From contig JAJDAN010000038.1 of assembly GCA_029261855.1 (NCBI GenBank), positions 28,051 through 92,050 of the forward strand: 64,000 nt of DNA, in the 5' to 3' direction. Position 1 is the first letter of the stretch; every line of letters begins with the position of its first letter. This document shows positions 1,495 to 61,091 of the stretch, in pieces. Source of the DNA: Deltaproteobacteria bacterium (GTDB taxonomy: Bacteria > Myxococcota_A > UBA9160 > UBA4427). A model generated the notes under the pieces. It had not been told where the DNA came from. It saw only the letters and a program-made list of their open reading frames with translations, and did no database searches. Position numbers and translations under genes: made by a program.

Positions 1495-1514
1495 CGTCTC
1501 TATACTCCGCCTTC

Positions 1515-45801: not shown

Positions 45802-47184
45802 ATGTCGCCGATCGTCTGCCGTCGCGCCCCCCCTCCGTTCGTCGCGGTGCATGTCCTGATGGGGCTCCTCGTTGTGAGCGCGGCACTGTCCGGCTGCTCT
45901 TCCGGGCGGGACGCCGGACGGCCGGACGTCCTGCTCATCACCATCGACACGCTCCGCGCGGACTTCGTTCACAGCTACGGCTTCGCGGTCGAGACGACGC
46001 CCCGGATCGACGGCCTCGCGCAGCGGGGGGTCTTGTTCGAGATGGCCATCGCGGCATCGACCGCGACCGCGCCGTCTCACGCGTCCATCATGACCTCACG
46101 CTACGTCCGGGAGCACACGGTCGGATCCCTGAACGGCGCGACGCGCCTCGAAGGCATCGAGACCCTGGCTGACTCGTTCCGGGAAGCGGGCTACGACACC
46201 GCCGCGTTCGTGAGCAACGTCGTCCTGAAGGCGCGCAGCGGACTCGATCGCGGCTTCGACCACTACGACGACGAGCTCCCCGAGTCCGAGGCGAACCGCC
46301 TGATGTACTTCGAGCGCGTCGGCGCCGACACCGTCGCCCGCGCGCGCGCCTGGCTCGAGAAGCCCCGCGAGACGCCCTTCTTCGTGTGGGTCCACCTGCA
46401 GGACCCCCACGGCCCCTACACCCCCGGCGAACCGTGGTCGGAGCTGGCTCCCGAAGTGCCCCTGCGGACGGACCGCGCGTTGCCGGTGCTGAGCGTCAAC
46501 CGTGGCCGGGGCGGCATTCCCCACTACCAGGCGCTTCCAGGGGTCCGCAGGGGGCCGCGTTACGCCGGGCTGTACGCCGGTGAAGTGGCGCGGACGGACG
46601 CCCAGGTCGGCGAGCTGGTGGACGCGGCCGAGCGGGCAACCACGAGCGGGCTGGTGATCGCGCTGACCGCCGACCATGGGGAGAGCCTCGACGAGGACGG
46701 CTTCTTCTTCCAGCACGGCCACACGGCTTCGCCCGAGCAGGCGCAGGTCCCCCTCGTGATCGTGGCGCCGCAGCTTCCCACCCGCCGTATCGCCGGCGTC
46801 GTCAGTCACGTGGATCTTGCGCCGACCCTGCTCGAGCTGGCGAGCCTCGATCCCCTTCCCCACCAGAGCGGGATCTCCCTGGTGCCGTTCATGCGCGAGG
46901 GCCGGCCGCTTCCGCCGCGGGCCGTCCTCAGCGATGTCGGTCACGAGATCGGCGCGTACGACGCCGAGGGATACTGGACCATCAAGGTCTTCGGGGAAGG
47001 ACTGGACTGGCAGCGCTACCAGCGGGACGGCCGCGGCTTCCGCAAGGTCGACGAGCCGAAGCTGCCGTCGGACATCGACCGCTATCTCGCGCGCGAAGTG
47101 GAGCCCGTCCCCGCACGCGCCATGAGCGACCAGGACCTCGAGCGCCTTCGCGCCCTCGGCTACCTGCCGCCGGACCCCAACTAG
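45802..47184 (+). CDS. sulfatase-fold (alkaline-phosphatase superfamily) lipoprotein with variant active-site motif
   Basis: 460 aa. Signal peptide with canonical lipobox LSGC. LLITIDTLRAD metal-site motif, T-A-P-S-H (46066-46080) in place of C/S-x-P-x-R, WVHLQDPHGPY, LTADHGE. Confidence 0.8.
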   Translation: MSPIVCRRAPPPFVAVHVLMGLLVVSAALSGCSSGRDAGRPDVLLITIDTLRADFVHSYGFAVETTPRIDGLAQRGVLFEMAIAASTATAPSHASIMTSRYVREHTVGSLNGATRLEGIETLADSFREAGYDTAAFVSNVVLKARSGLDRGFDHYDDELPESEANRLMYFERVGADTVARARAWLEKPRETPFFVWVHLQDPHGPYTPGEPWSELAPEVPLRTDRALPVLSVNRGRGGIPHYQALPGVRRGPRYAGLYAGEVARTDAQVGELVDAAERATTSGLVIALTADHGESLDEDGFFFQHGHTASPEQAQVPLVIVAPQLPTRRIAGVVSHVDLAPTLLELASLDPLPHQSGISLVPFMREGRPLPPRAVLSDVGHEIGAYDAEGYWTIKVFGEGLDWQRYQRDGRGFRKVDEPKLPSDIDRYLAREVEPVPARAMSDQDLERLRALGYLPPDPN

Positions 47185-47186
47185 CC

Positions 47187-47909
47187 GTGTATCGAGGTCT
47201 CAAGGTGATCGCGATGGCGCCGGTCCTGGACGAAGAGGCCAAGATCGGGGAGGTCGTGCGACGCACGCCGCGCGACATCGTCGACGACCTGCTCGTGATC
47301 GACGACGGCTCGACCGACCGCTCGGCCGACGTCGCCCGGGAAGGAGGCGCGCGAGTGCTCGCCATGGGGCGCGTGGCCGGCGTGGGAGCCGCCTTGCGCG
47401 CCGGGTACGCCGAGGCCCTGCGCGGTGGCTACGACGTCGCCGTCGTGATGGCGGGCAACAACAAGGACGCCCCCGAAGAGATCACGCGCTTGCTCGACCC
47501 CATCGCCGACGGCCGCGCAGACTTCGTTCAGGGGTCGCGTTTCCTCGAACGGGGCGCCGACTTCGGCGAGATGCCCCTCTACCGGCGGATCGCGACGCGC
47601 GTTCACCCGTTGCTCTTCTCCCTGGTGACGGGGCGGCGCGTCACCGAGTCGACCAACGGCTTTCGTGCGGTGCACCGTCGCGTGCTCGAGGACGCGCGCC
47701 TCGATCTCGACCAGAGCTGGCTCGATGAGTATGAGCTCGAGCCCTATCTCTACATCCGCGCCATCCAGCTGGGCTATCGCACGGTGGAAGCGCCGGTTTC
47801 GAAGGTTTACCCTCCGAAGAGCATCGGACAGACGAAGATGCGTCCGTTCATCGGCTGGTGGTCGATCCTGAAGCCATTGCTGCTGCTGGGTCTGCGGCTC
47901 AAACGCTAG
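47187..47909 (+). CDS. GT2, polyprenyl-phosphate glycosyltransferase-like (DPM1/GtrB-like), one C-terminal TM
   Basis: 240 aa, GTG start 2 nt after the upstream stop. APVLDEEAKIG, VIDDGSTDRS, TNGFRAV, C-terminal hydrophobic IGWWSILKPLLLLGL. Confidence 0.8.
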   Translation: MYRGLKVIAMAPVLDEEAKIGEVVRRTPRDIVDDLLVIDDGSTDRSADVAREGGARVLAMGRVAGVGAALRAGYAEALRGGYDVAVVMAGNNKDAPEEITRLLDPIADGRADFVQGSRFLERGADFGEMPLYRRIATRVHPLLFSLVTGRRVTESTNGFRAVHRRVLEDARLDLDQSWLDEYELEPYLYIRAIQLGYRTVEAPVSKVYPPKSIGQTKMRPFIGWWSILKPLLLLGLRLKR

Positions 47910-47943: not shown

Positions 47944-48978
47944 ATGGTCCGTATCGCAGTCATCGGTGCGGGGCACTGGGGCCCGAACCTGATCGCCAAC
48001 TTCCACGACCATCGCCGCAGCGAGGTCACGTGGGTCGTTGATCTCGATCGGGATCGCCGCGAGGCCGTCACCCTGCGCTTTCCGGACATCCGCGTCTCGG
48101 ACGATGCCGCGGCCGTGATCGCGGACCCGGCTGTCGACGCCGTCGTCGTCGCGACACCCACGGGTACCCACTTCGCCCTGGCCAGCGCAGCCCTCGAAGC
48201 GGGCAAGCACGTGCTCGTCGAGAAACCGATGGCGGCGAACGTCGCCGACGCGGAAGCGCTCTGCGAGATCGCCGAAGCAGCCGGCCGCACCCTCATGGTG
48301 GGCCACATCTTCATCTACAACGGTGCGTCCCAGCAGGCCAAGGGCTATCTGAGCGACGACGAGCTCGGCCGCATCTACTACGTGTCGATGACGCGGACGA
48401 ACCTCGGGCCCATTCGCGTGGACGTGAACGCCGCCTGGGACCTGGCGTCCCACGACATCGCCCTGGCCAGCTACTGGCTAGACGCCGAGCCGGTGAGTGT
48501 TTCGGCGACCGGGCGGGACTGGATCAACCCCGGGGTCGAGGACGCGGTCTTCGCGACGCTGCGCTACCCGGGCGATGTCCTCGTGCACCTCCACGCGTCC
48601 TGGTTACACCCGAGCAAGACTCGCGACATCATCGTCGTCGGAGAGAAGCGAATGCTGAGCTTCGACGACATGAGCCTCACCGAGCCGTTGCGGATCTACG
48701 ACAAGCAGGTCTCGCCGGCGCGCACTTCGTCTTCGTTCGTCGACTCGTTGGCGACCTTTCGCATGATGGTCCGCGAGGGCGACATCCGGATCCCGAAGGT
48801 GCCGCCGAGCCAGCCTCTGCGGAACGAATGCGACCACTTCCTGGATTGCATCGAGAGCGGCGCGACCCCCATCACGGATGGGCGGGAGGGGCTCGCCGTC
48901 GTGCGGGTGCTCGAGGCCATCAACCAGTCGATGCGAGAGGGCGGACGCGAGGTACGCATCGCCACCCGAGGCGGTTGA
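47944..48978 (+). CDS. Gfo/Idh/MocA-family NAD-dependent sugar (nucleotide-sugar) dehydrogenase
   Basis: 344 aa. IAVIGAGHWGPN Rossmann motif, HVLVEKPMA, MVGHIF. Confidence 0.85.
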   Translation: MVRIAVIGAGHWGPNLIANFHDHRRSEVTWVVDLDRDRREAVTLRFPDIRVSDDAAAVIADPAVDAVVVATPTGTHFALASAALEAGKHVLVEKPMAANVADAEALCEIAEAAGRTLMVGHIFIYNGASQQAKGYLSDDELGRIYYVSMTRTNLGPIRVDVNAAWDLASHDIALASYWLDAEPVSVSATGRDWINPGVEDAVFATLRYPGDVLVHLHASWLHPSKTRDIIVVGEKRMLSFDDMSLTEPLRIYDKQVSPARTSSSFVDSLATFRMMVREGDIRIPKVPPSQPLRNECDHFLDCIESGATPITDGREGLAVVRVLEAINQSMREGGREVRIATRGG

Positions 48979-50102
48979 TGAAGATCCCGCTCGTCGATCT
49001 CGCGTGGCAGCACGACCAGATCGCCGACGAGGTGCGTGCCGGGCTCGATCGCGTCGTCGCCGAGGGCGCCTTCATCCTCGGCCCGGAGGTGGCGTCCTTC
49101 GAGCAGGAATTCGCGCGGGCCTCTGGCGTCGCGCACTGCGTCGGCGTCGGCAGCGGGACGGACGCCCTCGAGCTCTGCCTGCGCGCCGCGGGCGTCTCCG
49201 TCGGCGACGAGGTCGTCGTACCGGCGAACACCTTCATCGCGTCGGCGCTCGCCGTCGTGCGCGCGGGCGCACGTCCGGTGTTCGTCGACGCGGACCCGGA
49301 CACACACTTGATCGATGTCCAGGCCGCCCTCGACCGCGTCGGTCCGGCGACGCGCGCGATCCTGCCCGTGGATCTGTTCGGCCAGATCGCGCCCATCGAG
49401 CAGCTCGCAGACGGTCTCGGTGGACCTGCCGGGACAGCGGCTGGGCCGATCATCGTCGAGGACGCCGCGCAGTCCCAGGGCGCGCGGCGACATGGGCGGC
49501 ATTCCGGTTCGTTCGGCTCGATCGCGGGCACGAGCTTCTACCCGGGCAAGAACCTGGGCGCCTGGGGCGACGCCGGTGCGGTCATGACCGACGATGCCGA
49601 GCTGGCCGGGCGGGTGCGTCGGCTGCGGCAGTACGGCAGCGAGACGAAGTACGAGCACCCGGAGCTGGGTTTCAACTCGCGGCTCGACAGTGTCCAGGCC
49701 GTGGTGCTGCGCGCGAAGCTCGCGCGCCTCGACGCGTGGAACCAGCTGCGTCGTGAGGCTGCCGCGCGCTACGACGTCCTGCTCGCGGACCTGCCCGACG
49801 TCGTGCGCCCCGAGACCTTGCCCGGCAACGAGCACGTCTGGCACCTGTACACCGTGCGTGTGCCGGAACGCGACCGCGTGCTCGCGGCTCTCCACGCGGC
49901 GGGCGTCGGTGCCGGAGTCCACTATCCGGTGCCGATCCATCTGCAGGGCGCGTTCGCGGGTCACGGGCACCGCGCCGGCGATTTCCCCGTGGCCGAGGCG
50001 GCTGCCCAGCAACTGATTTCGCTGCCGATCTACCCCGGCATCGAGCCGGCCCAGCAGGAACGGGTGGTGTCGGTGCTCGCAGACGCGCGCGCGGCGGCCT
50101 GA
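48978..50102 (+). CDS. DegT/DnrJ/EryC1/StrS-family PLP-dependent sugar aminotransferase
   Basis: 374 aa from ATG 48978, which overlaps the upstream stop (TGATG). GVGSGTDALEL, DAAQSQGA, SFYPGKNLGAWGDAG (PLP Lys), NSRLDSVQA. Confidence 0.9.
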   Translation: MKIPLVDLAWQHDQIADEVRAGLDRVVAEGAFILGPEVASFEQEFARASGVAHCVGVGSGTDALELCLRAAGVSVGDEVVVPANTFIASALAVVRAGARPVFVDADPDTHLIDVQAALDRVGPATRAILPVDLFGQIAPIEQLADGLGGPAGTAAGPIIVEDAAQSQGARRHGRHSGSFGSIAGTSFYPGKNLGAWGDAGAVMTDDAELAGRVRRLRQYGSETKYEHPELGFNSRLDSVQAVVLRAKLARLDAWNQLRREAAARYDVLLADLPDVVRPETLPGNEHVWHLYTVRVPERDRVLAALHAAGVGAGVHYPVPIHLQGAFAGHGHRAGDFPVAEAAAQQLISLPIYPGIEPAQQERVVSVLADARAAA

Positions 50103-50110
50103 ACCGGGGG

Positions 50111-52357
50111 ATGCGGCCGGCCGTCGTCGCGCTGTTGCTGGGACTCGCGTTGGCTCTCGCGCTGCTGCTGCGCGCCCTCGGCTTCGAGTGGGTCTTCGTC
50201 GACGACGCGACCCTGGTGTTCGCGCCGGGCGACGCCCAATACCACGCGCGCCGAGCCCTGTACGGCTTCGTCAACTTTCCCGAGGTGCTGTTCTTCGACC
50301 CGTACATCAACTTTCCGGGCGGCGCGGCGATTTCATGGCCGCCGGGTTTCGACTTCACGCTGTCCGCATTCGGGCGCCTGTGGGTCGACGAGCCGGCGGC
50401 GTTCCTCGCCATGGCCGCCTGGGCGCCCCCGGTCCTGGGAGCGCTCGCGCTGCTGCCGGCCTTCGCGGTCGCGCGTCGCATCGCTGGCGCGGGTGTCGGA
50501 CTCGGCGCCGCGGCGTTGATGGCTTCGCTGCCCATGAGTGTCAGCTACAGCCGCGTGGGACAACTCGACCATCACTGTGCGGTGGCCTTGATCGGCGCCG
50601 TGCTGCTGTGGGTACTGGTCCGAACGATCGACAGCGATCGCGTTTCGTGGCTCTCGTTTGCAGTCCTCGCGCTGGGCCGCATCGCGATGCTGCTGACCTG
50701 GCATGGCAGCCTGCTCTACCTGGCGGCCGTAGAGGGAGTGCTGTGGGTGGCGGCGGCAGTGACGGGCCGACGCGATCTCTACGCGGTGCAGGCCGGCAGC
50801 GCCCTCGTCGCCGTCGCCGTGGTGGCGCCGCTGGTCTGGCTCTTCCCCGAGCCCCTCGGCGGGGCCTGGTCGGCCATCGCGCTCTCGCGCCTGCACGTCA
50901 CCGCGATGTGTGCCGTGGCGGCGGTGTCGGGCGGACTCTGGTGGCTCGAAGGTCGGGGCAGTACGCGTTCTGCCTCGGCACGCCTCGTGTGGACGCTCGT
51001 CCTGGGTCTGGGGGTGATCGCGGTGCTGGGACTGTTGCCCGCGACCCGTTCGGGGATCGAGCCGGCGTTGCGTTTCGTGACCCTGCAGGACGGCGTGGGC
51101 CATCGCACTGGAGAACAGCTGCCGTTGTTCTCCTTCCTCGGTCGCGCGAGCGGTCGTCCGGTCTGGGAAGTCTGGGGACTGCTCGGGTACGCGCTTCCGG
51201 TGTTGCCGTTCGCGACGGTGTGGGCGGCGGCCCGGGAACGGCGGCCGGCCGCATGGGTGGTCGCGGCCTGGTGTGCCTGGTTCGGAACCCTCGCGCTCGT
51301 GCAGCGCCGCTACGGCAACGACCTCGGTCCGGCGGCAGCCGTCGGCTTCGCCCTCGTGATTGCCGCCGTCGCGCACCGAGGCGGGTCGATCGCCGCGTCG
51401 CGCACGGGTGCGGGTGTACCGGTCTCCGCAATCGCCGTGGTGCTCGGTCTACTGCTGCTGTCGCCGCCCGTCTTCGGAGAGTGGCTTCCGCGCCTCGCGC
51501 GCAGCGCCCAGGCAATGGGGAAGGAGCCGCCCCTGGTCGACCCCGCACTGCGGACCCCCGCTGGCTCGCTGACGCGTTTCCTCGAGCAGGTGCGGCAGCT
51601 TACGCCCGAGACGTCAGGCTATTTCGACGCCCGAATCGCGCCCGAGTACGGCGTGGTTTCCCACGCCAACTTCGGCCACGCCGTCCAGAACATCGCCCGA
51701 CGGCCGACTCCGACCGACCCCTTCTGGGCCTTCATCGGCGTCGACAACTGGGACGCCGCGTTCGGTCTGCTCAGCGCGAAGTCCGAGAAGGAGGCACTCG
51801 ACCTGGCCCGGCAGCTGCGCGCCCGGTACGTGATCACCCACGCGAGCGCCGACCCGGGTGGCTTCGAGGCGTGGTTGCACCATCACGACGGGCTGCAGAA
51901 GGGCCCCCGCCCCGCCGCACGACACTTCCGACTGGTCACCGAGGGACCGAAGGGCGGCGCGCACATCGCCCAGGTGCTGGAGGTGCGAGACGACGAGAGC
52001 GCCGGTTCGCGCCGCACGCCCGGACTCGACGATCTGCCCTACAAGCTGTTCGAAGTCGTCGAGGGCGCCGTCATCCAGGTGCGCGCGGAGAGGGGTGAGA
52101 CGGTCGACGTCGAGCTGCGACTGGAGACGCCCAGCGGTCGCGAGGTCGTCTGGAAGGGGCACGCGAACGCGGCGTCGGATGGCTTCGCCCGGCTGCGCGT
52201 TCCCTATTCGACTTCGGCGACTTCGGCGAGTTCCACTCCTTCCCAGTCGGTACGCGCGCTCGCGCCCTACCGCGTCACCGTCGGATCCCGGAGCGTCGCG
52301 GTCCCGGTCGACGAGGACGACATCCAGCAGGGGCGAGCCGTGGTCGCGACGTTCTGA
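50111..52357 (+). CDS. STT3/AglB-like oligosaccharyltransferase homologue (GT-C) with degenerate WWDYG motif
   Basis: 748 aa. Loop-1 GDAQYHARR..NFPEVLFFDPYINFPGG (Asp codon 50231-50233), second motif QLDHH (50567-50575), ~13 TM. The C-terminal soluble domain begins with HANFGH (51662-51679), then ...SAKSEKEALDLARQLRARYVI, matching the archaeal AglB layout. Confidence 0.75.
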   Translation: MRPAVVALLLGLALALALLLRALGFEWVFVDDATLVFAPGDAQYHARRALYGFVNFPEVLFFDPYINFPGGAAISWPPGFDFTLSAFGRLWVDEPAAFLAMAAWAPPVLGALALLPAFAVARRIAGAGVGLGAAALMASLPMSVSYSRVGQLDHHCAVALIGAVLLWVLVRTIDSDRVSWLSFAVLALGRIAMLLTWHGSLLYLAAVEGVLWVAAAVTGRRDLYAVQAGSALVAVAVVAPLVWLFPEPLGGAWSAIALSRLHVTAMCAVAAVSGGLWWLEGRGSTRSASARLVWTLVLGLGVIAVLGLLPATRSGIEPALRFVTLQDGVGHRTGEQLPLFSFLGRASGRPVWEVWGLLGYALPVLPFATVWAAARERRPAAWVVAAWCAWFGTLALVQRRYGNDLGPAAAVGFALVIAAVAHRGGSIAASRTGAGVPVSAIAVVLGLLLLSPPVFGEWLPRLARSAQAMGKEPPLVDPALRTPAGSLTRFLEQVRQLTPETSGYFDARIAPEYGVVSHANFGHAVQNIARRPTPTDPFWAFIGVDNWDAAFGLLSAKSEKEALDLARQLRARYVITHASADPGGFEAWLHHHDGLQKGPRPAARHFRLVTEGPKGGAHIAQVLEVRDDESAGSRRTPGLDDLPYKLFEVVEGAVIQVRAERGETVDVELRLETPSGREVVWKGHANAASDGFARLRVPYSTSATSASSTPSQSVRALAPYRVTVGSRSVAVPVDEDDIQQGRAVVATF

Positions 52358-52359
52358 GA

Positions 52360-54027
52360 TCAGCGCAGGAAGCGCACCTCGAAGCGGCCGCCGAAGGCGA
52401 GCTGGTGCGGGCGCGCAAAGCGGATGCTGTAGAAGACGGTCTCGCCTTCGCGGTCCGTGTGCGCGCGAATCTCGACGTCGTCGGCGGGTAGGGCGTGGGC
52501 GGCTTCGAGGAGCTTCGGTCCCAACCCGAACAGGTCGTAGCGGGGTGCGAACACCAGGTAGTGGTGTGAGGCGTCGCCGCGATGGGTCCACGCGCGACCC
52601 CGGGCGAGCTGATTGGGAAGCGCCCAGATGGGCTCTTCGAGCCGGTTCTCTCGCGTGAGGAACTGGAGCGTTTCGTGGAAGCCCCAGTCGAGCGAGACGG
52701 CTGTCGCACCGGGGTCGGCCGTCAGCTCTTCGGCAAAGGCGTCGAGCGCGTTCGAATAGCGACCCCGGCCGCCGGTGTCTGCAATGAGCGTGCGTGTCTC
52801 GCGCACGACGTAGAGATTCGCGACGACGATCGCGATGGCGATCGCCGCGGCGAGGCCTCGCAGCACTCCCGTTCGTCGACCGAGATCGACCAGCAGCAGG
52901 GCGAGCAGCAGGTGCGTGAAGGGCATGAGGTTGAGCATGTGGTGCGCGCGGACCGCACCGGGCAGTGCCAGCATCGCCGCGCCCAGCACCGCGACGGTGA
53001 CACCCAGGAAGACGAGGCCTGCTCGGCTCGACGTGCGCGCCGGCGTCCTGGGGTCGTCCGCGAGAGCGCCCTCGAACCCTCGGAAGCGGGCCCCGACAGC
53101 GGAGCCAACGAGCGCGACGACGATGCCGAAGCCCAGCAGCCCGCCCGGCGCCGAGCCGTCGAAGATCCGCTCGAACACGCCCCCCACGTCGATCACGCGG
53201 AAGTAGTATGAGCCATCGAGCGTGCTCCACAGGACGCTGGCGCGGTACGCGAGATCTCCGCGATCCGCGATTCCCGATTCGACGGTGAGCAGGTCGATGG
53301 CGGACAAGAGCATCGGGAGCGAGCCGAGCACGAGGCAGCCCGCCGCGGCCAGCACGGTGCCCGGCCGTTCGCGCATCTCGGCGACCGAGGCGCGACCCCG
53401 GGCCGCGAGCAGCCCCAGAGCCGCGGCCGCGCCGATGATCACGAAGTCGGCCCGGGCATAGACGCCGAGACCCATGGCGAGGGCGCCGGCGGCCACGACC
53501 CAGCCGCGCCGGGTCTGCCAGCCAGCGGTCAGCAGGTAGAGACCCGCGCAGCGGCAGAGCAACAGGGTCGTATACGGACCCCATTCGCAGGCACCGAAGA
53601 AGACGAAGCTGGGGTCGAAGGCGACGAAGATCGCGCCGAGCAGTGCCGTCGGCAGTCCGAACACCCGCCGGGCCCAGAGTGTGGCCAGCAGCAAGGCGAG
53701 CAGCGCGGTGCCGAGGGTGGCCAGGCGCAGGGTGTGGAGATCCGGCCCGAACAGCGCGAAGGGCGGGATCAGCAGCTGCGGCTTGAGCGCCCCCAGGTAG
53801 GCGGCGTTGCGCAGCGGGAAGCGCCGGCCAAAGAGGAAGGTCGAGCGTTCGCTCGGGGGATGGGTCGTCTGGCGCTCTGGCTCGAGGAAGTCCCGGGCCT
53901 GCTGGCCGAGGAAGGCTTCGTCGTAGTTGAGACCGGGCTCGCCTTCGGGAGGCACGAGCACCAGGACGACGATCGCAGAGAGTACGAGCCAGGCGGCAAT
54001 GACGATCGCCGTCTCAGAGCGGAACAT
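52360..54027 (-). CDS. GT-C-type (ArnT/PMT_2-like) membrane glycosyltransferase-like protein
   Basis: About 555 aa from ATG 54027; the track start is 54078. Loop-1 NYDEAFLGQQARDF, ~12 TM, C-terminal soluble domain. Its stop lies 2 nt from the convergent STT3-like stop. Confidence 0.7.
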   Translation of the reverse strand: MFRSETAIVIAAWLVLSAIVVLVLVPPEGEPGLNYDEAFLGQQARDFLEPERQTTHPPSERSTFLFGRRFPLRNAAYLGALKPQLLIPPFALFGPDLHTLRLATLGTALLALLLATLWARRVFGLPTALLGAIFVAFDPSFVFFGACEWGPYTTLLLCRCAGLYLLTAGWQTRRGWVVAAGALAMGLGVYARADFVIIGAAAALGLLAARGRASVAEMRERPGTVLAAAGCLVLGSLPMLLSAIDLLTVESGIADRGDLAYRASVLWSTLDGSYYFRVIDVGGVFERIFDGSAPGGLLGFGIVVALVGSAVGARFRGFEGALADDPRTPARTSSRAGLVFLGVTVAVLGAAMLALPGAVRAHHMLNLMPFTHLLLALLLVDLGRRTGVLRGLAAAIAIAIVVANLYVVRETRTLIADTGGRGRYSNALDAFAEELTADPGATAVSLDWGFHETLQFLTRENRLEEPIWALPNQLARGRAWTHRGDASHHYLVFAPRYDLFGLGPKLLEAAHALPADDVEIRAHTDREGETVFYSIRFARPHQLAFGGRFEVRFLR

Positions 54028-54143: not shown

Positions 54144-55781
54144 TTGAGTCCGCGCAAGGCCACGAAGCCCTCGCCGGGAATCCTGTTCGCCGGTTTCGTC
54201 GTGGCCGCGTTCGTCATCTACGCGCCCGCCCTGAACGGCACCTTCATCTCGGACGACGAGCACTACGTCCAGCGCAACGTATTCGTCCACCACCCCCTGG
54301 ACAACTGGGTGGCGATCGTCGACCCCACCAGCGTGCTGGCGGAGATCGTCGAGAACTACGCGCCCGTGCACGTACTGCTGCACGCGTTGGAATGGCAGCT
54401 CTTCGGGCCCGAGACCTTCGGCTACCACGCCGTCAACGTGACGCTGCATGCCCTCACGGCGTTGCTGCTGGTGCTGCTCCTTCGCCGCAGCGGCGTTTCC
54501 GGAGCCGCTTCGGCTCTGGGCGGGGCCTTCTTTCTCGCCCACGCCGGGAACGTCGAGGCGGTGGCGTGGATCAACCAGCTCAAGACCTCGTCGGCCATGG
54601 TTCTGTGTCTGGCCGCGCTGCTGCTGCATCCACGCCGACCCGCGCTGGGCGCCTTGCTGTTCGCTCTTGCGCTGATGGCCAAGCCCACCGCCGCGGTCGC
54701 GCTCTTCGTCGCTGCCGCCTTCGGCTGGGCACGCACCCGTCACGACCCCGCAGAGGGTGTCGAAGCAGTCGAAGCAGAAAGCCCCTGGCGCTGGGGCTGG
54801 CTCGGCGTGTGGGCGGGCATCCTCGTCCTGTTCGCGGTCGCCGAGTTCGCGGCCTTCTCACAGACCGCCGGCCAGGCGCCGGCACTCTACGCGGACCTGG
54901 CGGACCGCGTCCGCAGCATGTTCGCCATCGCTCTTCGCTATCTGGCGATGGCGGGGAGCACCTGGGGGCTCTCGACCTTCCACGAACCCGAGCCCGCGGG
55001 CCCGTTCGATCCGTGGTGGTTGATGTCGCTTCCGGTCTTCGCCGCGCTCGGATGGCGGACCTTCGTGTGCCTCCGCGAGCGACGCGAAGAGGCGGCCTGG
55101 TGGATCTTCGCGATCGTCTCGTTCGGTCCCGTGAGCGGGCTGATCCCCCTGCCCTTCCCGATCGCCGACCGCTACCTGTACTTCATGCTGCCGGGCCTGA
55201 TCGGTGGATGTCTGTTGGCCGGCCCTGCGTTGCTGGCGAGGTTTTCACCGTCTCCCAGGTTCTGGCGCGGGGTTCGCGTGGCATCGGCGGTCGTCATCGT
55301 GCTGTTCGCCGTTCGCAGCTTCGATCGGGCCCGGGTCTGGCAGACGCCGTTTACCGCCATGGCCGACTCGATCGCCCACTATCCGGACGGGGTCGCTGCC
55401 AAGACCCAGCGCGCCACGCTGGCGGCGCAGTCGGGGGACGCGGGCGCGGCCGTCGCGCTGCTCGAGGAAGCCCACGCGCGAGGCTACAACCGACTCGATC
55501 ACCTGCTGATGCCGGGCTACGGCCCGATCCAGAGCGATCCGGCGTTCGTGCGCCTGAAGAAGCAGTGGGCCCGGGAATGGATCGAGCGGCTGTCGCGGAA
55601 CGAGTCGCCGTCCCAGCATGAGCTACAGCTCGTCGCCCAGGCACAGCTGGTGTTGGAGGACCTGCCCGCCGCACGGGACACGATCCAGAGAGCCATCGCC
55701 GTTGGCGGCCCGATCACGGCGAACCTCGAGGCCGACCTCGCCGAAGTCGAGCGCGCCATCCGCTTCTCGCGGCTTCGCTAG
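54144..55781 (+). CDS. TMTC-like GT-C membrane protein with C-terminal TPR domain
   Basis: 545 aa, TTG start. Loop-1 FISDDEHYVQRN (the F-x-x-DD...N pattern of TMTC/DUF1736-type proteins), ~10 TM, then TPR-like helices. Confidence 0.7.
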   Translation: MSPRKATKPSPGILFAGFVVAAFVIYAPALNGTFISDDEHYVQRNVFVHHPLDNWVAIVDPTSVLAEIVENYAPVHVLLHALEWQLFGPETFGYHAVNVTLHALTALLLVLLLRRSGVSGAASALGGAFFLAHAGNVEAVAWINQLKTSSAMVLCLAALLLHPRRPALGALLFALALMAKPTAAVALFVAAAFGWARTRHDPAEGVEAVEAESPWRWGWLGVWAGILVLFAVAEFAAFSQTAGQAPALYADLADRVRSMFAIALRYLAMAGSTWGLSTFHEPEPAGPFDPWWLMSLPVFAALGWRTFVCLRERREEAAWWIFAIVSFGPVSGLIPLPFPIADRYLYFMLPGLIGGCLLAGPALLARFSPSPRFWRGVRVASAVVIVLFAVRSFDRARVWQTPFTAMADSIAHYPDGVAAKTQRATLAAQSGDAGAAVALLEEAHARGYNRLDHLLMPGYGPIQSDPAFVRLKKQWAREWIERLSRNESPSQHELQLVAQAQLVLEDLPAARDTIQRAIAVGGPITANLEADLAEVERAIRFSRLR

Positions 55782-58700
55782 CCCGTCTGGCGTTTCCGCA
55801 GCTGGGCACGGACTTTGTTGCGCAGGAGGGTCTGCCGCTTCGCGTCCAGGAGACCCGGGGGCAGGCCGTCGATCGCGACGATCGCGGCGCTCAGGGCGCG
55901 CGTGTGAGCGGGACTCGCGTCGTTCTTTCGAAGTAGCTCGTTGATCGACGAGGCGACCCCGCGTTCGAAGCCGGCTGCCGCCGCGGCGCGAGCACGCAGC
56001 ACGAGGTCGTTGCCGGAGCCACCCGTCGCCAGGATGCCGTCCAGCAGCTGCAGTGCCACGAGCGCGTTCTCCTTTCCGCCCTCTGCCAGCCGCCAGCGTG
56101 CGCGCAGGCGACCGGCCTCCGCAAACGCCGGGTCGTGAGCGTGAACCGCGGCGAGGCTGGCATCCCGTTCGCGCAGGGCGGTCCAGTCCGATGCGTTCGC
56201 GAGCTGCCAGGCTTCGAGCAAGAGCCGGGCATACGGGATGGGTTCTACGTCGAACGCGTCGTCGACATTGCCGGTAGGCGAGAAGCCGAGCAGTGCGATC
56301 TGGGCTTCGCCGTTGCGCGGGTCGTCCGCCAGCGCCCGGCGGTAGGCGCTCGCCGCCGCCTGCGCGTCGCCCCGACGTTGGGCCATCAGCCCGAGCGCGA
56401 CGTTTCGTTCGACCGGATCGCTGGCGGCTTCGGCGAGTCGCCTGGCGCGTCCGGTGTGCCCGCTCGCGAGCGCACGCCGGATCAGGTACGCGCGGTCCCA
56501 AGCCAAGGCGTCGCGCACCAGGGGGTCGAGAGGTGCGAACAGCGGGTCGGGATCCAGCCGCCCGACGCTGCGGACGACCCGGGGCGATCGCATCTGGAGC
56601 AGGTTGCGATCGTCGGTGCTCACGGGTGCGCCCGCTGCGAAGACACGGGCGGCTTCCTCGTCGAGCATCATGTGAACCACGATGTCCGCGCCGCCGTAGA
56701 TTCCGAACTCGGCCGCCTCGTCGGGCGCGAGGCGGATTGCTTCGGACGCCAGGCGCTCGGGCTCGAAGGGTGCGGCGGAGGCGGAGAAGAGCAGACCTCC
56801 GGGTGCCGGCTGATACACGCGGACGTAGGGGAAGACGTCCTGCAAGGTCGCGACGAGAGTCCGCAGCAGGTCCTCGTCGATGAAGCCCAGACCCATCCAC
56901 TGCACGAACACGCCGTCCTCGGCGAGGTGGTTCTTGACCAACTCGAAGAATTCCCGCGTGTAGAGATGCGAAGCGGAACCCGTCCAGGGATGGGACGGCT
57001 GCGAGACGATGGTGTCGTAGCGTTCGTCGGTGAGCAGCAGAGCGCTGCGTGCGTCATTGACGATCAGCTCCAGCCGTGGGTCGGCGAGCGGGTCTTCGCG
57101 TCGCTCGCTCGCGATGACCTCGTTGGCGCGAATCACCAGCGGCTCGATCTCGACGACGTCGATCTTCTCGAACAAAGGCGGAACGGCCTCGACGACGAGT
57201 CCTCCCCCGAGACCGATCACGAGCATGGACTTCGCTTCCGGGCGTCCCCAGCTCGCCAGCTGCGCGAGCCAGAGGCCGATGACGTAGCGCCCGACCCGTA
57301 CCCCCGGTCCATTGATGACGGCTTCCGGCAGGCCGTTCGAGCTGAGCGCGAAGCCGTTCGGGGCGCGCTGCACCATGACGGTGGCCCCACGACCCACGCC
57401 GAAGTACACGATGGGCGCCTGCCTCACGCGTGTCGACAGGGCGCCGGTGCGAAGCAACTGCCAGGGCGGCTCCGGGCGCACTCCCGCGATCGCGACGCAG
57501 ACGGCGACGGCGGCGACTGCGGCTGCCGTGGACCTCGGCCGCGCCCGCAAGGCGGTCGCGGCCGCCAGGGCCGCATTGGTCGAGACGGCGATGACGATCG
57601 TCCATGTGAAGCCGACGGCGGGGATCAGGAAGAAGCCCGCGCCGACCGCTCCCGCGATCGCGCCGACCGTATTCCACGCGTAGACCCGGGCACTGGCGGG
57701 CCCCGCTTCTTCCCGCGAGCGCGCGAGCACGCGCACGGCGAGCGGGAAGGTGGCGCCGATGCACAGCGCACCCGGCAGCAGGATCGCCGCGCTGATCCCG
57801 GCGTCGAGCAGGAGGCGCGCGTCGCCGCGCACGGCGCTCGACGCGACCCAGCCCGGTGTCGAATCGATGGCGACGTAGGCGGCGAGGGAGAGCAGTCCCG
57901 TTCCGATCTGCACCCAGGCGAACGCAGTCGTCGCGGTGCGCCGGTCCGCGACAAGGCGCCCGGAAGCCAGGGCCGATCCGAGTGCGATGCCCAACAGGAA
58001 GGTCGCAAGCATGGTGGCGAACGCGTACACGCTGCCGCCGAGGACGTGACCGAGCAGTCGGGTCCAGAAGACCTCGTAGGTGAACGACACGGCGCCCGAG
58101 ATCGCGATCAGAGGGAGGATCCAGCGGTTCGGCGCGCGCGGGTCGGGAGTCGCCCGTTGCACGGGTGTCGGCTCCACGGCGGGAGCGCGCAGCGCGAGCG
58201 CGGCGGCGGCCGCGAAGACCAGGCCGTTCGCACACACCGCGACCCAGATCGTCAGCGACAGGCCGAGCGCGGGAAGCAGGACGAAGCCCGTGAGGACGGT
58301 GCCGACGACGGCCCCTGCCGTGTTGGTGGCATAGAGCTGCGCGACGCGGCTTCCGATCTCTTCCTCGCGGCGGACGGCGTGGCGCGCCAGGAGCGGCAGG
58401 GTCGCCCCCATCAGGGAGGTGGGTACCAGGAGGATCACGAACGAGCAGACGAGGTAGAAGAGCGCGGTCAGCAGCCCGCCCTCGTCCGCCGGTGCGTTCT
58501 GCGCGCCGAAGATCGCGATGTAGAGCGAGGTCGCCGCGCCCACGCCCAGGGGCACCGCGAGCGCGGTCAGACCGATGGCGAGCTCGAGCAGTCCGTACAC
58601 CCAGATCGGTCGCTGGATGCGTGGGGCGATGCGGCCGATCACCGCCGCGCCCAGGGCGAGCCCGCCCATGTATGCGGCCAGCACACTTGCGACGGCGAGC

Positions 58701-58840
58701 TCGGAGGTGCCGAAGACGAACGCGAACTGACGCGTCCAGGCGGTCTGGTAGATCAGCGCCGCGAGGCCGGAAAGGAAGAAGCAGAGGAGGAGGAGCCCGA
58801 AGTACCTGCCCGGCCGGGCAGGTGAGGCGTCAGGAGGCAC
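55778..58840 (-). CDS. fused polytopic membrane domain / spermidine-synthase-like domain / C-terminal TPR domain
   Basis: 1020 aa. N-terminal ~490 aa has ~12 TM (LSGLAALIYQTAWTRQF...). Class I MTase-fold SpeE-like core: MLVIGLGGGL at 57197-57226, VVEIEP, NDARS, DTIVSQPSHPW at 56984-57016. C-terminal ~250 aa is helical and TPR-like. Confidence 0.8.
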   Translation of the reverse strand: MPPDASPARPGRYFGLLLLCFFLSGLAALIYQTAWTRQFAFVFGTSELAVASVLAAYMGGLALGAAVIGRIAPRIQRPIWVYGLLELAIGLTALAVPLGVGAATSLYIAIFGAQNAPADEGGLLTALFYLVCSFVILLVPTSLMGATLPLLARHAVRREEEIGSRVAQLYATNTAGAVVGTVLTGFVLLPALGLSLTIWVAVCANGLVFAAAAALALRAPAVEPTPVQRATPDPRAPNRWILPLIAISGAVSFTYEVFWTRLLGHVLGGSVYAFATMLATFLLGIALGSALASGRLVADRRTATTAFAWVQIGTGLLSLAAYVAIDSTPGWVASSAVRGDARLLLDAGISAAILLPGALCIGATFPLAVRVLARSREEAGPASARVYAWNTVGAIAGAVGAGFFLIPAVGFTWTIVIAVSTNAALAAATALRARPRSTAAAVAAVAVCVAIAGVRPEPPWQLLRTGALSTRVRQAPIVYFGVGRGATVMVQRAPNGFALSSNGLPEAVINGPGVRVGRYVIGLWLAQLASWGRPEAKSMLVIGLGGGLVVEAVPPLFEKIDVVEIEPLVIRANEVIASERREDPLADPRLELIVNDARSALLLTDERYDTIVSQPSHPWTGSASHLYTREFFELVKNHLAEDGVFVQWMGLGFIDEDLLRTLVATLQDVFPYVRVYQPAPGGLLFSASAAPFEPERLASEAIRLAPDEAAEFGIYGGADIVVHMMLDEEAARVFAAGAPVSTDDRNLLQMRSPRVVRSVGRLDPDPLFAPLDPLVRDALAWDRAYLIRRALASGHTGRARRLAEAASDPVERNVALGLMAQRRGDAQAAASAYRRALADDPRNGEAQIALLGFSPTGNVDDAFDVEPIPYARLLLEAWQLANASDWTALRERDASLAAVHAHDPAFAEAGRLRARWRLAEGGKENALVALQLLDGILATGGSGNDLVLRARAAAAAGFERGVASSINELLRKNDASPAHTRALSAAIVAIDGLPPGLLDAKRQTLLRNKVRAQLRKRQTG

Positions 58841-61082
58841 CGGCGCCGCGTCTCCCCTCGAGGGCTTGTCTGGCGTGGTCGGCTTCGGGGAAGGTGGTGC
58901 TGATCGAGAGCGCCTTTTCCAGGGCCTTCGTCGCTTCTTCGTCCCGGTCGAGGGCCTGGAGCGCCATTCCCATGACGAAGTACACGCTCGGGTTTCCCTG
59001 GTCGCTCTCGAGCGTCTGCTCGAGGGTGGCGACCGCTTCGGCGTCTCGTCCGCTCATGTGATAGAGGCGACCCAGCAGCAAACGCCGCTCGTCGCTCAGT
59101 GCGCCGGCATGTGCGGCGGCTTCGGTCGCGGCCAGGGCCTCGGTGAGCTCTCCCTTGCGCAGATGCAGCGCGACCAGCAGCTCGAGTGCTCCGCGCAGAC
59201 GGGGTTGCAGCTCGAACGCCGCGCGCGCGTCCTCGAGCGTGTTCTCCTCCCGTCCCATGTCGGCGTTCGTCCGGGCCCGCAGCAGACGGATCGGTGCGGG
59301 AGTCTCGTCCTTCATGAGGCCGACGACGCGGTCGAGTCGCGCGAGTGCCAGCTCCCCGAGGCCATCCTCCAGGTCGAGACGGGTGAGCTGGACGAGGATC
59401 TCCCAGTTTCGCGGCTCGCGACGCGACAGCAGATCGAGTTCGCGTTTCGCGAGCTTGCGCGCTTCGGCGTCGCTTCCCTCGCGTCGCAGATACTCGAGCA
59501 CCGCATCCGCTGATTCGATGCGTCTCGCGATCAGCTCTTTCAGCAATTGGCGGCCGCGTTCGACGTGGCCGAGCTCGTAGCGGCAGCGCGCCATCAAGAG
59601 CTGGTCCTTCGGCATCAACCCTGCGCGTTCCTCGAGGGCAGTCAGGCTCTGGAGTGCGGCCGGCCAGTCGCCGCTCTCGGTGAGCAGCTCCGCCCGCATG
59701 CGATGCGCTTCGATGAAGAAGACCGGCTGCGCCTCGATCGCTCGATCCAGCGCCGCCTGTGCGGCTTCCCGGTTGCCGAGCGCTCGCTCGGCGCGCGCGA
59801 GCAGGAGCAAGGCGTCGGGATCCGCGTGGAGCTCGGTCGTCGCTCGTAGGCTCGCGACGGCCTTGCGCATGCGTCCGCTGCGGATGTCGAGCTGAGCCCG
59901 GCCGAGAATCGTCCGAGGGTGGTCGCGGTGCTCCTTCTCGAGGGCCTGGATGGTCCGCTCGGCGTCCTCGATCCGGCGGGCCGCGATCTGCGTACTCGCC
60001 ACCGCGCTCTTCAGCACCGCGGGATCGATACCCTCGGCCGCCTTCTTGTCGAGATAGGCGAGCGCCTCGTCGAGCTTCCACTGGGACACCAGGAAACGCG
60101 CGTACTCGATGTGCGCCTTCGGATCGTCCGGCCTGGCGGCGACGAGCTCGGCCCAGGTTTCCTGGGGATCCTTGCGCAGGCGGGCGCGCGTCTCGGCCAG
60201 CTCACGCCACGAGCTGTAGTCCCGGGGTTCGCTCTCTACCAGGATCTCGAGGGCGTGCTCCTGCAGCTCCCAGTTTCGGACCGATCGGGCAAAGGTGAGC
60301 GCACGCGCGGCTCCGTGCTGCAGGTCGCGAACGCTGCCCTTCTGGCGCGCGTTCTCGAGTGCGATCTTGAACTGCATGGCCGCCTGCGGGTTGTTCCCTT
60401 CCCACGCAGCCATGATCCGGGCTTCTTCGATCTGGGCGTTCCAAGGGCTGTCGCCGCCCTTCTTGATGTATCGCTCGAGTGAGGCGAGGGCGCTCTGATA
60501 CACCGAGTCCTCGACCGGCTCGCCGGTCACCTGCCCTTCTCGGATCATCGCTTGCAGCGCATAGCCGAGCTGGAAGTCGGCCCGGGGATCGTCCGGCGCC
60601 ACTTCCATGGCCTTGCGTGCCGCGAGAACCGCCGCACGCGTTCGCCCGCGGACCAGGGCGAGATTCGAACGCCCGATGTAACCGAGGGCGTTCTCCGGAT
60701 CCCGGTGGATGACGCCCTCGATCAGGGCCTCGGCCTGGTCCGTGTCGTGACTCTCGAGCATCGACGCCAGGTTCAGCGCCGCCACGCTGTTCGTGGGGTC
60801 GAGGTCGTACGCCTCCTGCATGTGGATCAGCGCCGCCGGCGTATTCCCCGCCTTCAGCTCGAGGACCGCCAACTCGTTGTTGGCCTCGACGTTCTGCGGG
60901 TCGAAGCGCAGGGCACTCTGGAACTCGAGCTTTGCCTCGACGCTGCGACCCTCGGCCAGGTGGGCGCGGCCCACGGACAAGTGGTCGAGCGCGCGGTCCT
61001 CACTGGAGGAGCAGGCAACGGCGAGGACCAGGATGCCGATCGTCGCGGCAACCCGGACCGGGAGGAGGGATCCCGTTTCCAT
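58830..61082 (-). CDS. large TPR-repeat protein with signal peptide (probable lipoprotein)
   Basis: 750 aa. Signal ...IGILVLAVAC-SSS, then TPR-like A/L/Y-patterned repeats throughout. Its 3' end overlaps the next start by 11 nt. Confidence 0.8.
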   Translation of the reverse strand: METGSLLPVRVAATIGILVLAVACSSSEDRALDHLSVGRAHLAEGRSVEAKLEFQSALRFDPQNVEANNELAVLELKAGNTPAALIHMQEAYDLDPTNSVAALNLASMLESHDTDQAEALIEGVIHRDPENALGYIGRSNLALVRGRTRAAVLAARKAMEVAPDDPRADFQLGYALQAMIREGQVTGEPVEDSVYQSALASLERYIKKGGDSPWNAQIEEARIMAAWEGNNPQAAMQFKIALENARQKGSVRDLQHGAARALTFARSVRNWELQEHALEILVESEPRDYSSWRELAETRARLRKDPQETWAELVAARPDDPKAHIEYARFLVSQWKLDEALAYLDKKAAEGIDPAVLKSAVASTQIAARRIEDAERTIQALEKEHRDHPRTILGRAQLDIRSGRMRKAVASLRATTELHADPDALLLLARAERALGNREAAQAALDRAIEAQPVFFIEAHRMRAELLTESGDWPAALQSLTALEERAGLMPKDQLLMARCRYELGHVERGRQLLKELIARRIESADAVLEYLRREGSDAEARKLAKRELDLLSRREPRNWEILVQLTRLDLEDGLGELALARLDRVVGLMKDETPAPIRLLRARTNADMGREENTLEDARAAFELQPRLRGALELLVALHLRKGELTEALAATEAAAHAGALSDERRLLLGRLYHMSGRDAEAVATLEQTLESDQGNPSVYFVMGMALQALDRDEEATKALEKALSISTTFPEADHARQALEGRRGAGAS

Positions 61083-61091
61083 GGTCGTGGC

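Follow-up and report, generated by a model that had tools for sequence, protein, structure and literature searches.

What does an oligosaccharyltransferase (OST) of the archaeal AglB type act upon when the motif with which such enzymes read the acceptor sequon is missing? The question is raised by a gene at positions 50111-52357 (forward strand) of a 64,000-nucleotide stretch of the genome of a Deltaproteobacteria bacterium, an uncultured myxobacterium of marine origin (contig JAJDAN010000038.1, positions 28,051 to 92,050 of the forward strand; GTDB phylum Myxococcota_A), referred to below as the window. An initial annotation, made from the letters of the window, had described its product as an AglB/STT3-like enzyme with intact catalytic acidic motifs and a degenerate WWDYG motif; the motifs on which it relied (GDAQYH, FDPYINFPGG, the D-H-H triplet at 50567-50575, HRTGEQ, and HANFGH at 51662-51679) all lie where it had placed them. 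We tentatively propose, at a probability of about 0.42, that this enzyme is a catalytically competent, archaeal-type lipid-linked glycan transferase that would act on a protein acceptor without a canonical sequon. Its catalytic residues are kept throughout a large bacterial family and its Ser/Thr acceptor pocket is lost.

A bacterial member of the AglB lineage

The gene is an open reading frame of 748 aa whose start codon follows the stop codon of an upstream DegT gene after 8 bases; the G+C content is about 70% across the whole window, and the frame has the high third-position G+C of a real gene. The relationship to STT3 proposed in the initial annotation was upheld by the Pfam scan, in which the product matched STT3 (PF02516) at 4e-10, with 40.2 bits against a gathering score of 24.5, and AglB_L1 (PF18079) at 8.9e-17, with 61.4 bits against 23.6. 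The AglB_L1 match covers residues 652-744 (52064-52342, forward strand), the C-terminal peripheral beta domain, which the family profile aligned to residues 772-867 of Archaeoglobus fulgidus AglB-L (AfAglB-L) as a second HMMER domain. This peripheral domain is typical of the 'long' euryarchaeal AglBs, and the query possesses it. The sole NCBIfam match was archaeo_STT3 (TIGR04154, archaeosortase A system-associated OST), at 254.3 bits over residues 8-590 only, and it did not reach the curated cut-off of 450 bits for the whole protein; the query was also below the threshold for Pfam AglB_core-like, and its PMT_2 score of 21.7 bits was under the gathering score of 26.1.

In searches against the sequences of the PDB, the single query matched AfAglB-L at 6e-10, and a profile of 24 family members matched it with an E value of 1.6e-38 and also matched the C-terminal domains of two short A. 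fulgidus paralogues; the sequence identity between query and AfAglB-L is only 16-18%. An AlphaFold2 model computed from an alignment of 44 homologues reached a predicted local distance difference test score (pLDDT) of 94.1 and a predicted template-modelling score (pTM) of 0.93. The top Foldseek matches of this model were four AfAglB-L structures (query template-modelling score, TMq, 0.72-0.79; E 1e-28 to 1e-30), the best pair being 7e9s/3wak (TMq 0.77-0.79, probability 1.00), and the OST fold, with its glycosyltransferase C (GT-C) membrane domain and C-terminal globular domain, is present. Eukaryotic STT3 chains (TMq 0.46-0.60), DPY19 (about 0.52), PglB (0.43-0.46) and ArnT (0.33-0.35) came next. 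Because of these Pfam, profile and Foldseek matches we assign the protein to the AglB lineage of GT-C enzymes; it is a homologue of the GT66 OSTs, and its donor side very probably works as theirs does. A generic PMT_2 family member, which the initial annotation had named as an example of what would refute its own assignment, was ruled out by the sub-gathering PMT_2 score set against the strong matches to STT3, AglB_L1 and the AglB fold.

Conservation of the catalytic and lipid-phosphate residues

Residue roles are those assigned to AfAglB by Taguchi et al. (2021; PMC8342417); positions were equated by phmmer alignment to 3WAJ and by the family profile, and conservation was counted in 226 family sequences of at least 600 aa that have diverged to about 30% identity. 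All codons given in this section and the next are on the forward strand. D41 (50231-50233), within the GDAQYH motif of residues 40-45, corresponds to D47 in the first DXD motif of AfAglB, a metal ligand that also takes part in acceptor activation (PMC8342417), and is Asp in 223 of the 226 representatives. In external loop 1, the segment FDPYINFPGG (residues 62-71; 50294-50323), equivalent to FDPFTYYPYG of AfAglB, includes the near-invariant D63, P69 and G71, the first of them kept in 224/226. The second DXD motif, D153-H154-H155 (50567-50575), aligns with the metal ligands D161-H162-H163; D153 is present in all 226 sequences and H155 in 222. The initial annotation had given a D-x-H form of this motif in archaeal AglB, and the published assignment is indeed Asp-His-His (PMC8342417). 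It had also suspected an acidic residue of external loop 5 (EL5) in HRTGEQ: this is E335, in the TIXE-type motif R332-T-G-E335 (51104-51115), which stands opposite E360 in T357-I-A-E360 of AfAglB and is kept in 225/226. A conserved QxPLF comes after it, giving the family pattern [TVN]-x-E-Q-x-P-L-F for EL5; in AfAglB, the L356-F365 segment is critical for activity and the EL5 segment forms a beta-strand that pairs with the acceptor peptide (PMC8342417). At the lipid-phosphate site, R400 (51308-51310), the equivalent of AfAglB R426, is likewise retained in 225 of the 226.

These counts bear on the explanation that the protein is a relic of an archaeal aglB acquired by transfer, either inactive or with a structural role alone. 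The loss of the signature motif and the sub-threshold score for AglB_core-like would suit a relic, but D41, D63, D153, H155, E335 and R400 are near-invariant in the diverged representatives, with column entropies in the 0-3rd percentile, the reading frame is intact, the model is confident and the synteny is conserved. From the near-invariant catalytic columns, taken together with the frame, the model and the synteny, we conclude that the active site is under strong purifying selection, and a relic appears highly improbable. The catalytic motifs that had been called intact, D41 and D153-H-H155, align to AfAglB and are selected as such.

Loss of the Ser/Thr acceptor pocket

The WWDYG motif, regarded as a signature common to OSTs, has been described in all AglBs (PMC4287180); it is important for activity and is the structural basis of recognition of the N-x-S/T sequon (PMC8342417). 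At its position the query reads H518-A-N-F-G-H523 (cac gcc aac ttc ggc cac; 51662-51679), of which HANFG itself occupies 51662-51676; W550, W551 and D552 of AfAglB are replaced by H518, A519 and N520, and G522 and H523 are retained. In the gap-free phmmer alignment to AfAglB-L (3WAJ), YGVISWWDYGHW lies opposite YGVVSHANFGHA, and with the 24-sequence profile these columns again meet WWDYG in each of the A. fulgidus paralogues AglB-L, 3VGP and 3VU0, which bears out the placement of HANFG in the initial annotation. No genuine WWDxG stands elsewhere in the protein: regular expressions for W[WYF]DxG and WWDxG found none in the query or in 234 sequences, a set made up of the family and the few sister-family sequences fetched by then, each of at least 600 aa.

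Further elements of the peptide site have changed. D536-P-F-W539 (51716-51727) is opposite N-P-F-Q571 of AfAglB, and Q571, which is among the peptide-site residues of that enzyme (PMC8342417), is swapped for a conserved Trp (W539). In the DK-motif region, which in the query runs G584...W588-L-H-H-H-D-G594 (51860-51892; phmmer alignment, column counts and entropy), K618 of AfAglB stands opposite G584, a column with Ser or Thr in most members and Arg in some, and the Lys of the DK motif is lost. Position K618+4, the Met/Ile slot of that motif, falls on W588 in the phmmer alignment, where most members have Arg, and a family-specific [RW]-L-H-x-x-D-G motif stands in the DK-motif place. PglB presumably carries DGGK in the region of D536-P-F-W539. 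Both halves of the Ser/Thr pocket, not WWD alone, are gone.

The columns of H518, A519 and N520 lie at the 92nd, 32nd and 73rd entropy percentiles (the last being Asn in 79/226) and the K618-equivalent column at the 73rd, next to G522 at the 2nd and H523 at the 6th. Since the catalytic columns fall in the 0-3rd percentile and the pocket columns reach the 92nd, catalysis is strongly selected and the old pocket is relaxed, a pattern that argues against a dead enzyme and, with less force, against rebuilding of the pocket for Ser/Thr. In the latter explanation the enzyme would be a conventional N-x-S/T OST whose pocket has been reassembled from H518, N520, W539 and the [RW]-L-H-x-x-D-G motif: H518 and N520 could still hydrogen-bond the hydroxyl, the DK-motif place is indeed taken by a conserved family-specific motif, the catalytic and EL5 elements are all intact, and relatives grade from WWDYG via xWDYG to xWxxG. 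A rebuilt pocket is, however, expected to be conserved, and the WWD- and K618-equivalent positions are variable, H518 most of all. Changes of WWD to Ala inactivate PglB and yeast Stt3, which also counts against such rebuilding, as do the occurrence of WWDYG in all AglBs described and its importance for activity. We consider a rebuilt sequon pocket unlikely.

Because WWD and the DK Lys are gone and their positions drift freely in the family, there is good reason to expect that the hydroxyl of a +2 Ser/Thr plays no part in selecting the acceptor. On this sequence evidence the family probably glycosylates something chosen by a rule other than N-x-S/T; the suggestion in the initial annotation of a non-sequon acceptor (another residue type, a lipid or a glycan) is a reasonable fit to the relaxed conservation of the pocket. 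As WWDYG and the DK/MI motif, two features that define a functional N-x-S/T OST, are both lacking, the name 'dolichyl-diphosphooligosaccharide--protein glycosyltransferase' given in some sources is unsuitable.

Family and hosts

A word-indexed search returned 93 clusters of relatives, and a profile search of 1.84 billion representatives gave at least 150 matches with E values of at most 1e-172, nearly all full-length; the family comprises at least 150 clusters at 50% identity. A further 2,637 proteins below 1e-30 must include ordinary AglBs. WWD is present in none of the 226 family representatives, which contain two subfamilies: 164 sequences, the query included, are without any Trp in the motif, the commonest form being H[AP]N.LGH, and 46 keep the second Trp. 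HANFG-like forms, whose distribution the initial annotation had proposed to survey, are thus the commonest within the subfamily of 164. The loss of the pocket is a trait of a large bacterial (Myxococcota) family, not of one gene.

A sister family of Anaeromyxobacter type (records P0087 and P0260-P0286, found from P0087) carries xW[DSENT]xGH, a D-Q-H second motif and a long insertion in the DK region. It shares with the query the Myxococcota host, the architecture and a degenerate WWDYG, but unlike the query it retains the second Trp and in many cases the Asp. A 514-aa fragment of this sister family (P0287) belongs to the cultured Anaeromyxobacter oryzisoli and offers an experimental entry point. 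WWDYG is intact only in P0297, the most distant match of the sister-family search; the graded series of WWDYG (P0297), xWDYG (P0087, P0260) and xWxxG looks like a stepwise decay of the motif.

The 28 species-level loci with relatives are all from uncultured metagenome-assembled genomes, many of them marine, whose labels are mostly Myxococcota, Myxococcales or Deltaproteobacteria and in a few cases 'bacterium', Proteobacteria or Spirochaetaceae; family members with a named organism are almost always Myxococcota. Archaeal contamination was ruled out by the bacterial labels of all 28 loci and by the bacterial housekeeping genes in the window (MutS2, UvrD, GlmU, FabH and HflX). Only 'a few bacterial homologues' were found nested in the euryarchaeal AglB clade by Lombard (2016), who took them to have been acquired from archaea by gene transfer. 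The query has an AglB_L1 domain and an NPF segment like that of AfAglB-L, both of which agree with such an origin.

The operon and the predicted sugar donor

Gene calls were taken from the identical public contig, and the products were scanned against Pfam and NCBIfam. The AglB-like gene stands last in a five-gene order (sulfatase-fold, GT2, oxidoreductase, DegT, AglB-like) that recurs in about 20 of 34 loci; in the window all five genes are on the forward strand. The first of them (45859-47184) encodes a lipoprotein of the sulfatase/alkaline-phosphatase fold (Pfam Sulfatase, 4e-44; lipobox LSGC), which accompanies the AglB-like gene more constantly than any other partner. True sulfatases have C/S-x-P-x-R, whereas this protein has T70-A-P-S-H, with T70 at the formylglycine position in an alignment to 4UPH; T-x-P-x-H is kept in all homologous loci (L002-L032), many of which have two adjacent paralogues. 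Because T-x-P-x-H replaces C/S-x-P-x-R, the product is not a formylglycine sulfatase; we place it in the alkaline-phosphatase superfamily as an enzyme with a Thr nucleophile, probably a phosphodiesterase or phosphotransferase.

The second gene (47214-47909) encodes a small family 2 glycosyltransferase (GT2), predicted to be a polyprenyl-phosphate sugar synthase. Its best NCBIfam matches are AglJ, a dolichyl-phosphate (Dol-P) hexose transferase and PpgS, with ArnC also found, all of them below their cut-offs, and its only PDB matches are Pyrococcus furiosus dolichyl-phosphate mannose synthase (DPMS) and ArnC; it is the best-conserved gene of the cluster, with 71-89% identity between loci. It is followed by a Gfo/Idh/MocA oxidoreductase gene (47944-48978), the product of which is a predicted WbpB-like 3-dehydrogenase of uridine diphosphate (UDP)-GlcNAc(A), with the archaeal UDP-GlcNAc 3-dehydrogenase as best NCBIfam match (1.7e-46, below cut-off), and by a gene (48978-50102) for a WbpE-like sugar aminotransferase of the DegT/DnrJ/EryC1 family (Pfam, 9.9e-104). 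A hexapeptide-repeat acetyltransferase gene lies between the DegT and AglB-like genes in 12 loci (e.g. 9463-10035 of locus L002) and is missing at 50102-50111 in the window and in its three closest relatives; the 3-amino group of the sugar made here may thus stay free, unless an enzyme encoded elsewhere acylates it. The amino-sugar operon recognized in the initial annotation is borne out by the Gfo/Idh/MocA and DegT genes upstream of the AglB-like gene, and the sugar can be specified further: the most likely product is a polyprenyl-monophosphate-linked 3-amino sugar formed via the AglJ/DPMS/ArnC-like GT2.

The surrounding glycosylation island

The operon is part of a 26-kb island at about 29.7-55.8 kb (29681-55781) that encodes at least six GT-C-like membrane proteins, namely two PMT_2 proteins, one YfhO/PTPS_related protein, one DUF6077 protein, the AglB-like protein and a 545-aa protein, together with six GT2s, one GT4, one methyltransferase and a flippase-like LPG_synthase_TM protein. 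Among the window proteins scanned there was no initiating phosphoglycosyltransferase (Bac_transf or MraY-type), as would be expected if the donor were monophosphate-linked in the euryarchaeal manner.

Directly downstream lies a convergent gene for a PMT_2-type GT-C (52360-54027, reverse strand; Pfam PMT_2, 5.5e-9), with synteny in 26 loci and an invariant YYDEAF motif in loop 1. For the 545-aa membrane protein (54144-55781, forward strand), whose family numbers over 1,000 clusters, searches of Pfam, NCBIfam and the PDB sequences gave no match; the motif F[IV]SDDxHYV that follows its first transmembrane segment is invariant. Its AlphaFold2 model (pLDDT 92.1) gave Foldseek matches to Pmt4, PglB, ArnT, AftA and DPY19 and to tetratricopeptide repeat (TPR) proteins, all of them weak (E at least 1.6e-3, TM-score at most 0.43). 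Judged from this model, the protein probably represents a GT-C, as yet unclassified, that ends in TPR-like repeats, an architecture like that of TMTC-type enzymes.

Two long genes for TPR lipoproteins (750 and 799 aa) were located at 58830-63491 (reverse strand) by gene calls, synteny and domain scans. The phosphatase-fold lipoprotein, the convergent PMT_2 GT-C, the 545-aa protein and the two TPR lipoproteins (about 750-800 aa) are the most widely kept partners of the AglB-like gene, and the phosphatase-fold lipoprotein and the TPR pair recur beside an AglB-like relative of 31% identity. The best NCBIfam match of the TPR lipoproteins, below cut-off, is PrsT of the XrtA/PEP-CTERM system. In 3 of 34 loci (L033, 1075-3032 and 14169-17844; L002, 18782-22279; L012, 9662-10558), secreted proteins with PEP-CTERM-type tails ([VI]PE[PA], a hydrophobic helix and RR) are encoded no more than 10 kb from an AglB-like gene, five of them between the sulfatase-fold and TPR genes in L033; none is encoded in the window.

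Two other features of the window and one of its relatives may be recorded here. Between the GT-C and TPR genes, 55778-58840 (reverse strand) encodes a 1,020-aa major facilitator superfamily (MFS)/spermidine-synthase-like fusion (NCBIfam MFS_SpdSyn) that is kept in L005, L006, L016 and L028. At 1368-4124 (forward strand) there is a 918-aa ORF for an unusual fusion of a Melibiase (alpha-galactosidase-like) domain with a haloacid dehalogenase (HAD) hydrolase. In a subclade of lower G+C and 38-40% identity (L011-L014; e.g. L014, 8241-9920, and L012, 2239-4089), the gene immediately 5' of the AglB-like gene encodes a class I lysyl-tRNA synthetase, and glycosylation genes are missing from the vicinity; the Anaeromyxobacter-type genes (L035, L036) also stand alone among housekeeping genes.

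An island of this composition is typical of the assembly of envelope polymers from lipid-linked monosaccharides, and it brings in the explanation that the chemistry is the same and the acceptor is not a protein: the enzyme would be an Arn-type envelope glycosyltransferase or ligase recruited from the OST fold, moving a polyprenyl-phosphate-linked 3-amino sugar or short glycan onto lipid A or the lipopolysaccharide (LPS) core, another glycolipid, or a periplasmic or exported polysaccharide. The gene order mirrors ArnA/B/C/T and PpgS/Rv3779, and the GT2 matches ArnC and PpgS; the peptide Ser/Thr pocket is lost and evolving freely; the phosphatase-fold partner has the nucleophile type of the glycolipid-modifying enzymes EptA and LtaS; and one subclade stands alone beside housekeeping genes. 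Set against this, a non-protein acceptor has not been described for characterized STT3, AglB or PglB enzymes, the EL5 peptide-pairing segment and the entire C-terminal globular domain are well conserved, the likeness of the fold to ArnT is much weaker than that to AglB, and no lipid A or LPS core genes were seen among the window proteins scanned. We regard such an acceptor as possible, though we would not favor it.

Proposed mechanism and choice of acceptor

Our preferred reading remains a lipid-linked glycan transferase with a protein acceptor. For the donor, for the link between the sugar enzymes of the operon and the transferase, and for the class of acceptor we infer the following route. 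The oxidoreductase and the aminotransferase would make a UDP-3-amino sugar, which the acetyltransferase of the 12 related loci would turn into a 2,3-diacetamido sugar. The AglJ/DPMS/ArnC-like GT2 would then load the sugar on polyprenyl monophosphate, other GT2 or GT4 enzymes of the island may extend it, and the lipid-linked glycan would be flipped to the periplasmic face. There R400 would hold the lipid phosphate, and D41, D153 and H155 would hold the divalent metal, with E335 bound through water, as in AfAglB; the nucleophile of the acceptor, lying between D41 and E335, would receive the glycan. This nucleophile would belong to the side chain of a protein, in the simplest case to the amide of an Asn outside any canonical sequon, and the conserved TPR lipoproteins may help to recognize the acceptor.

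A protein acceptor is favored because of the ancestry of the enzyme, its conserved EL5 strand and its TPR-bearing neighbours. The convergent PMT_2 GT-C, the 545-aa GT-C-like protein, the TPR pair kept beside the 31%-identical relative and the PEP-CTERM proteins near homologues in L033, L002 and L012 are further points in its favor. To our knowledge, the characterized members of the fold family close to the AglB-like protein are all protein N-glycosyltransferases, and we would rate a protein acceptor no less likely than a lipid or glycan one.

Several points weigh against this proposal. The case for a protein acceptor draws on ancestry and on neighbours that are generic. D41 and E335 would be kept for metal binding whatever the acceptor, and relaxation of the former peptide pocket would be no less expected if the acceptor were not a peptide. 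Arn and PpgS/Rv3779, which modify lipid A and the cell wall with amino sugars, share the architecture of dehydrogenase, DegT, polyprenyl-phosphate GT2 and GT-C. The amino-sugar genes are absent from L003, L004, L024 and L025 and from the lysyl-tRNA synthetase-linked subclade, and the operon product may therefore serve the neighbouring PMT_2 enzyme instead. The phosphate-site residue H81 of AfAglB is opposite S75 in the query, a column with Pro in most members, and is not conserved. Finally, the co-occurrence with PEP-CTERM proteins is not clearly above the background of a PEP-CTERM-rich genome and may be due to chance. Whether the acceptor proves to be a non-protein component of the envelope or proteins picked by the TPR partners, this may be the first GT66 lineage outside N-x-S/T, a suggestion that we make with reserve.

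Comparison with known systems

The nearest characterized enzyme is AfAglB-L (O29867; 3WAJ, 3WAK, 5GMY and 7E9S; GT66), with which the query shares the fold and the domain order including AglB_L1, the first Asp of the DXD motif, the Asp-His-His triplet, the TIXE-type Glu, Arg426 and an NPF-type segment after the WWDYG position. The two differ in WWDYG (HANFG in the query), Lys618 (Gly), Gln571 (Trp) and His81 (not conserved), and in the host, which is archaeal for AfAglB-L and bacterial for the query. Campylobacter PglB (3RCE, 5OGL and 6GXC) is likewise bacterial, a GT-C of one polypeptide that has a periplasmic domain and relies on Asp and Glu for catalysis in the same way, but it is far more distant by TMq, has WWDYG and the MI motif, and requires D/E-x-N-x-S/T in its acceptor. 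A phosphoglycosyltransferase starts its donor, which is carried on undecaprenyl pyrophosphate; as described above, no such enzyme was seen among the window proteins scanned.

The Agl pathway of Haloferax volcanii includes AglJ, AglG, AglP, AglB, AglD and AglS, and its AglB has WWDYG and acts on N-x-S/T. We take the window to resemble this pathway in its DPM1-like GT2 loading the first sugar on a lipid monophosphate, AglJ being the best NCBIfam match, and in its AglG-like GT2, S-adenosylmethionine (SAM) methyltransferases and AglB-type transferase; the extra pairs of GT-C and GT2 could presumably add sugars from lipid-phosphate monosaccharides after transfer. All of these matches in the window are, however, below the equivalog cut-offs, and the setting here is a Gram-negative periplasm. 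With the lipid A aminoarabinose pathway (ArnB/ArnC/ArnT) and mycobacterial PpgS/Rv3779 the operon shares the order of sugar aminotransferase, polyprenyl-phosphate GT2 and extracytoplasmic GT-C; here, however, the GT-C belongs to the STT3/AglB type and not to ArnT/PMT_2, and a 3-amino in place of a 4-amino sugar is predicted. In the literature searched, the coverage of which is incomplete, we found no description of WWD-less bacterial AglB homologues.

Implications

A large and deeply diverged bacterial family that has kept the active site and lost the sequon pocket is a natural experiment separating catalysis from sequon reading. If its members are active, they would either follow a new acceptor rule for protein N-glycosylation or represent an OST fold recruited to a different class of acceptor. 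The former would be useful in glycoengineering, where the sequon requirement is a limitation; the latter would bear on the spread of the N-glycosylation machinery between archaea and bacteria. In either case, bacteria of a large clade would possess an AglB scaffold that naturally works without the sequon. For the organisms themselves, the locus points to an uncharacterized periplasmic glycosylation island in marine Myxococcota, with at least three GT-C enzymes, a Thr-nucleophile phosphatase-fold lipoprotein and TPR lipoproteins.

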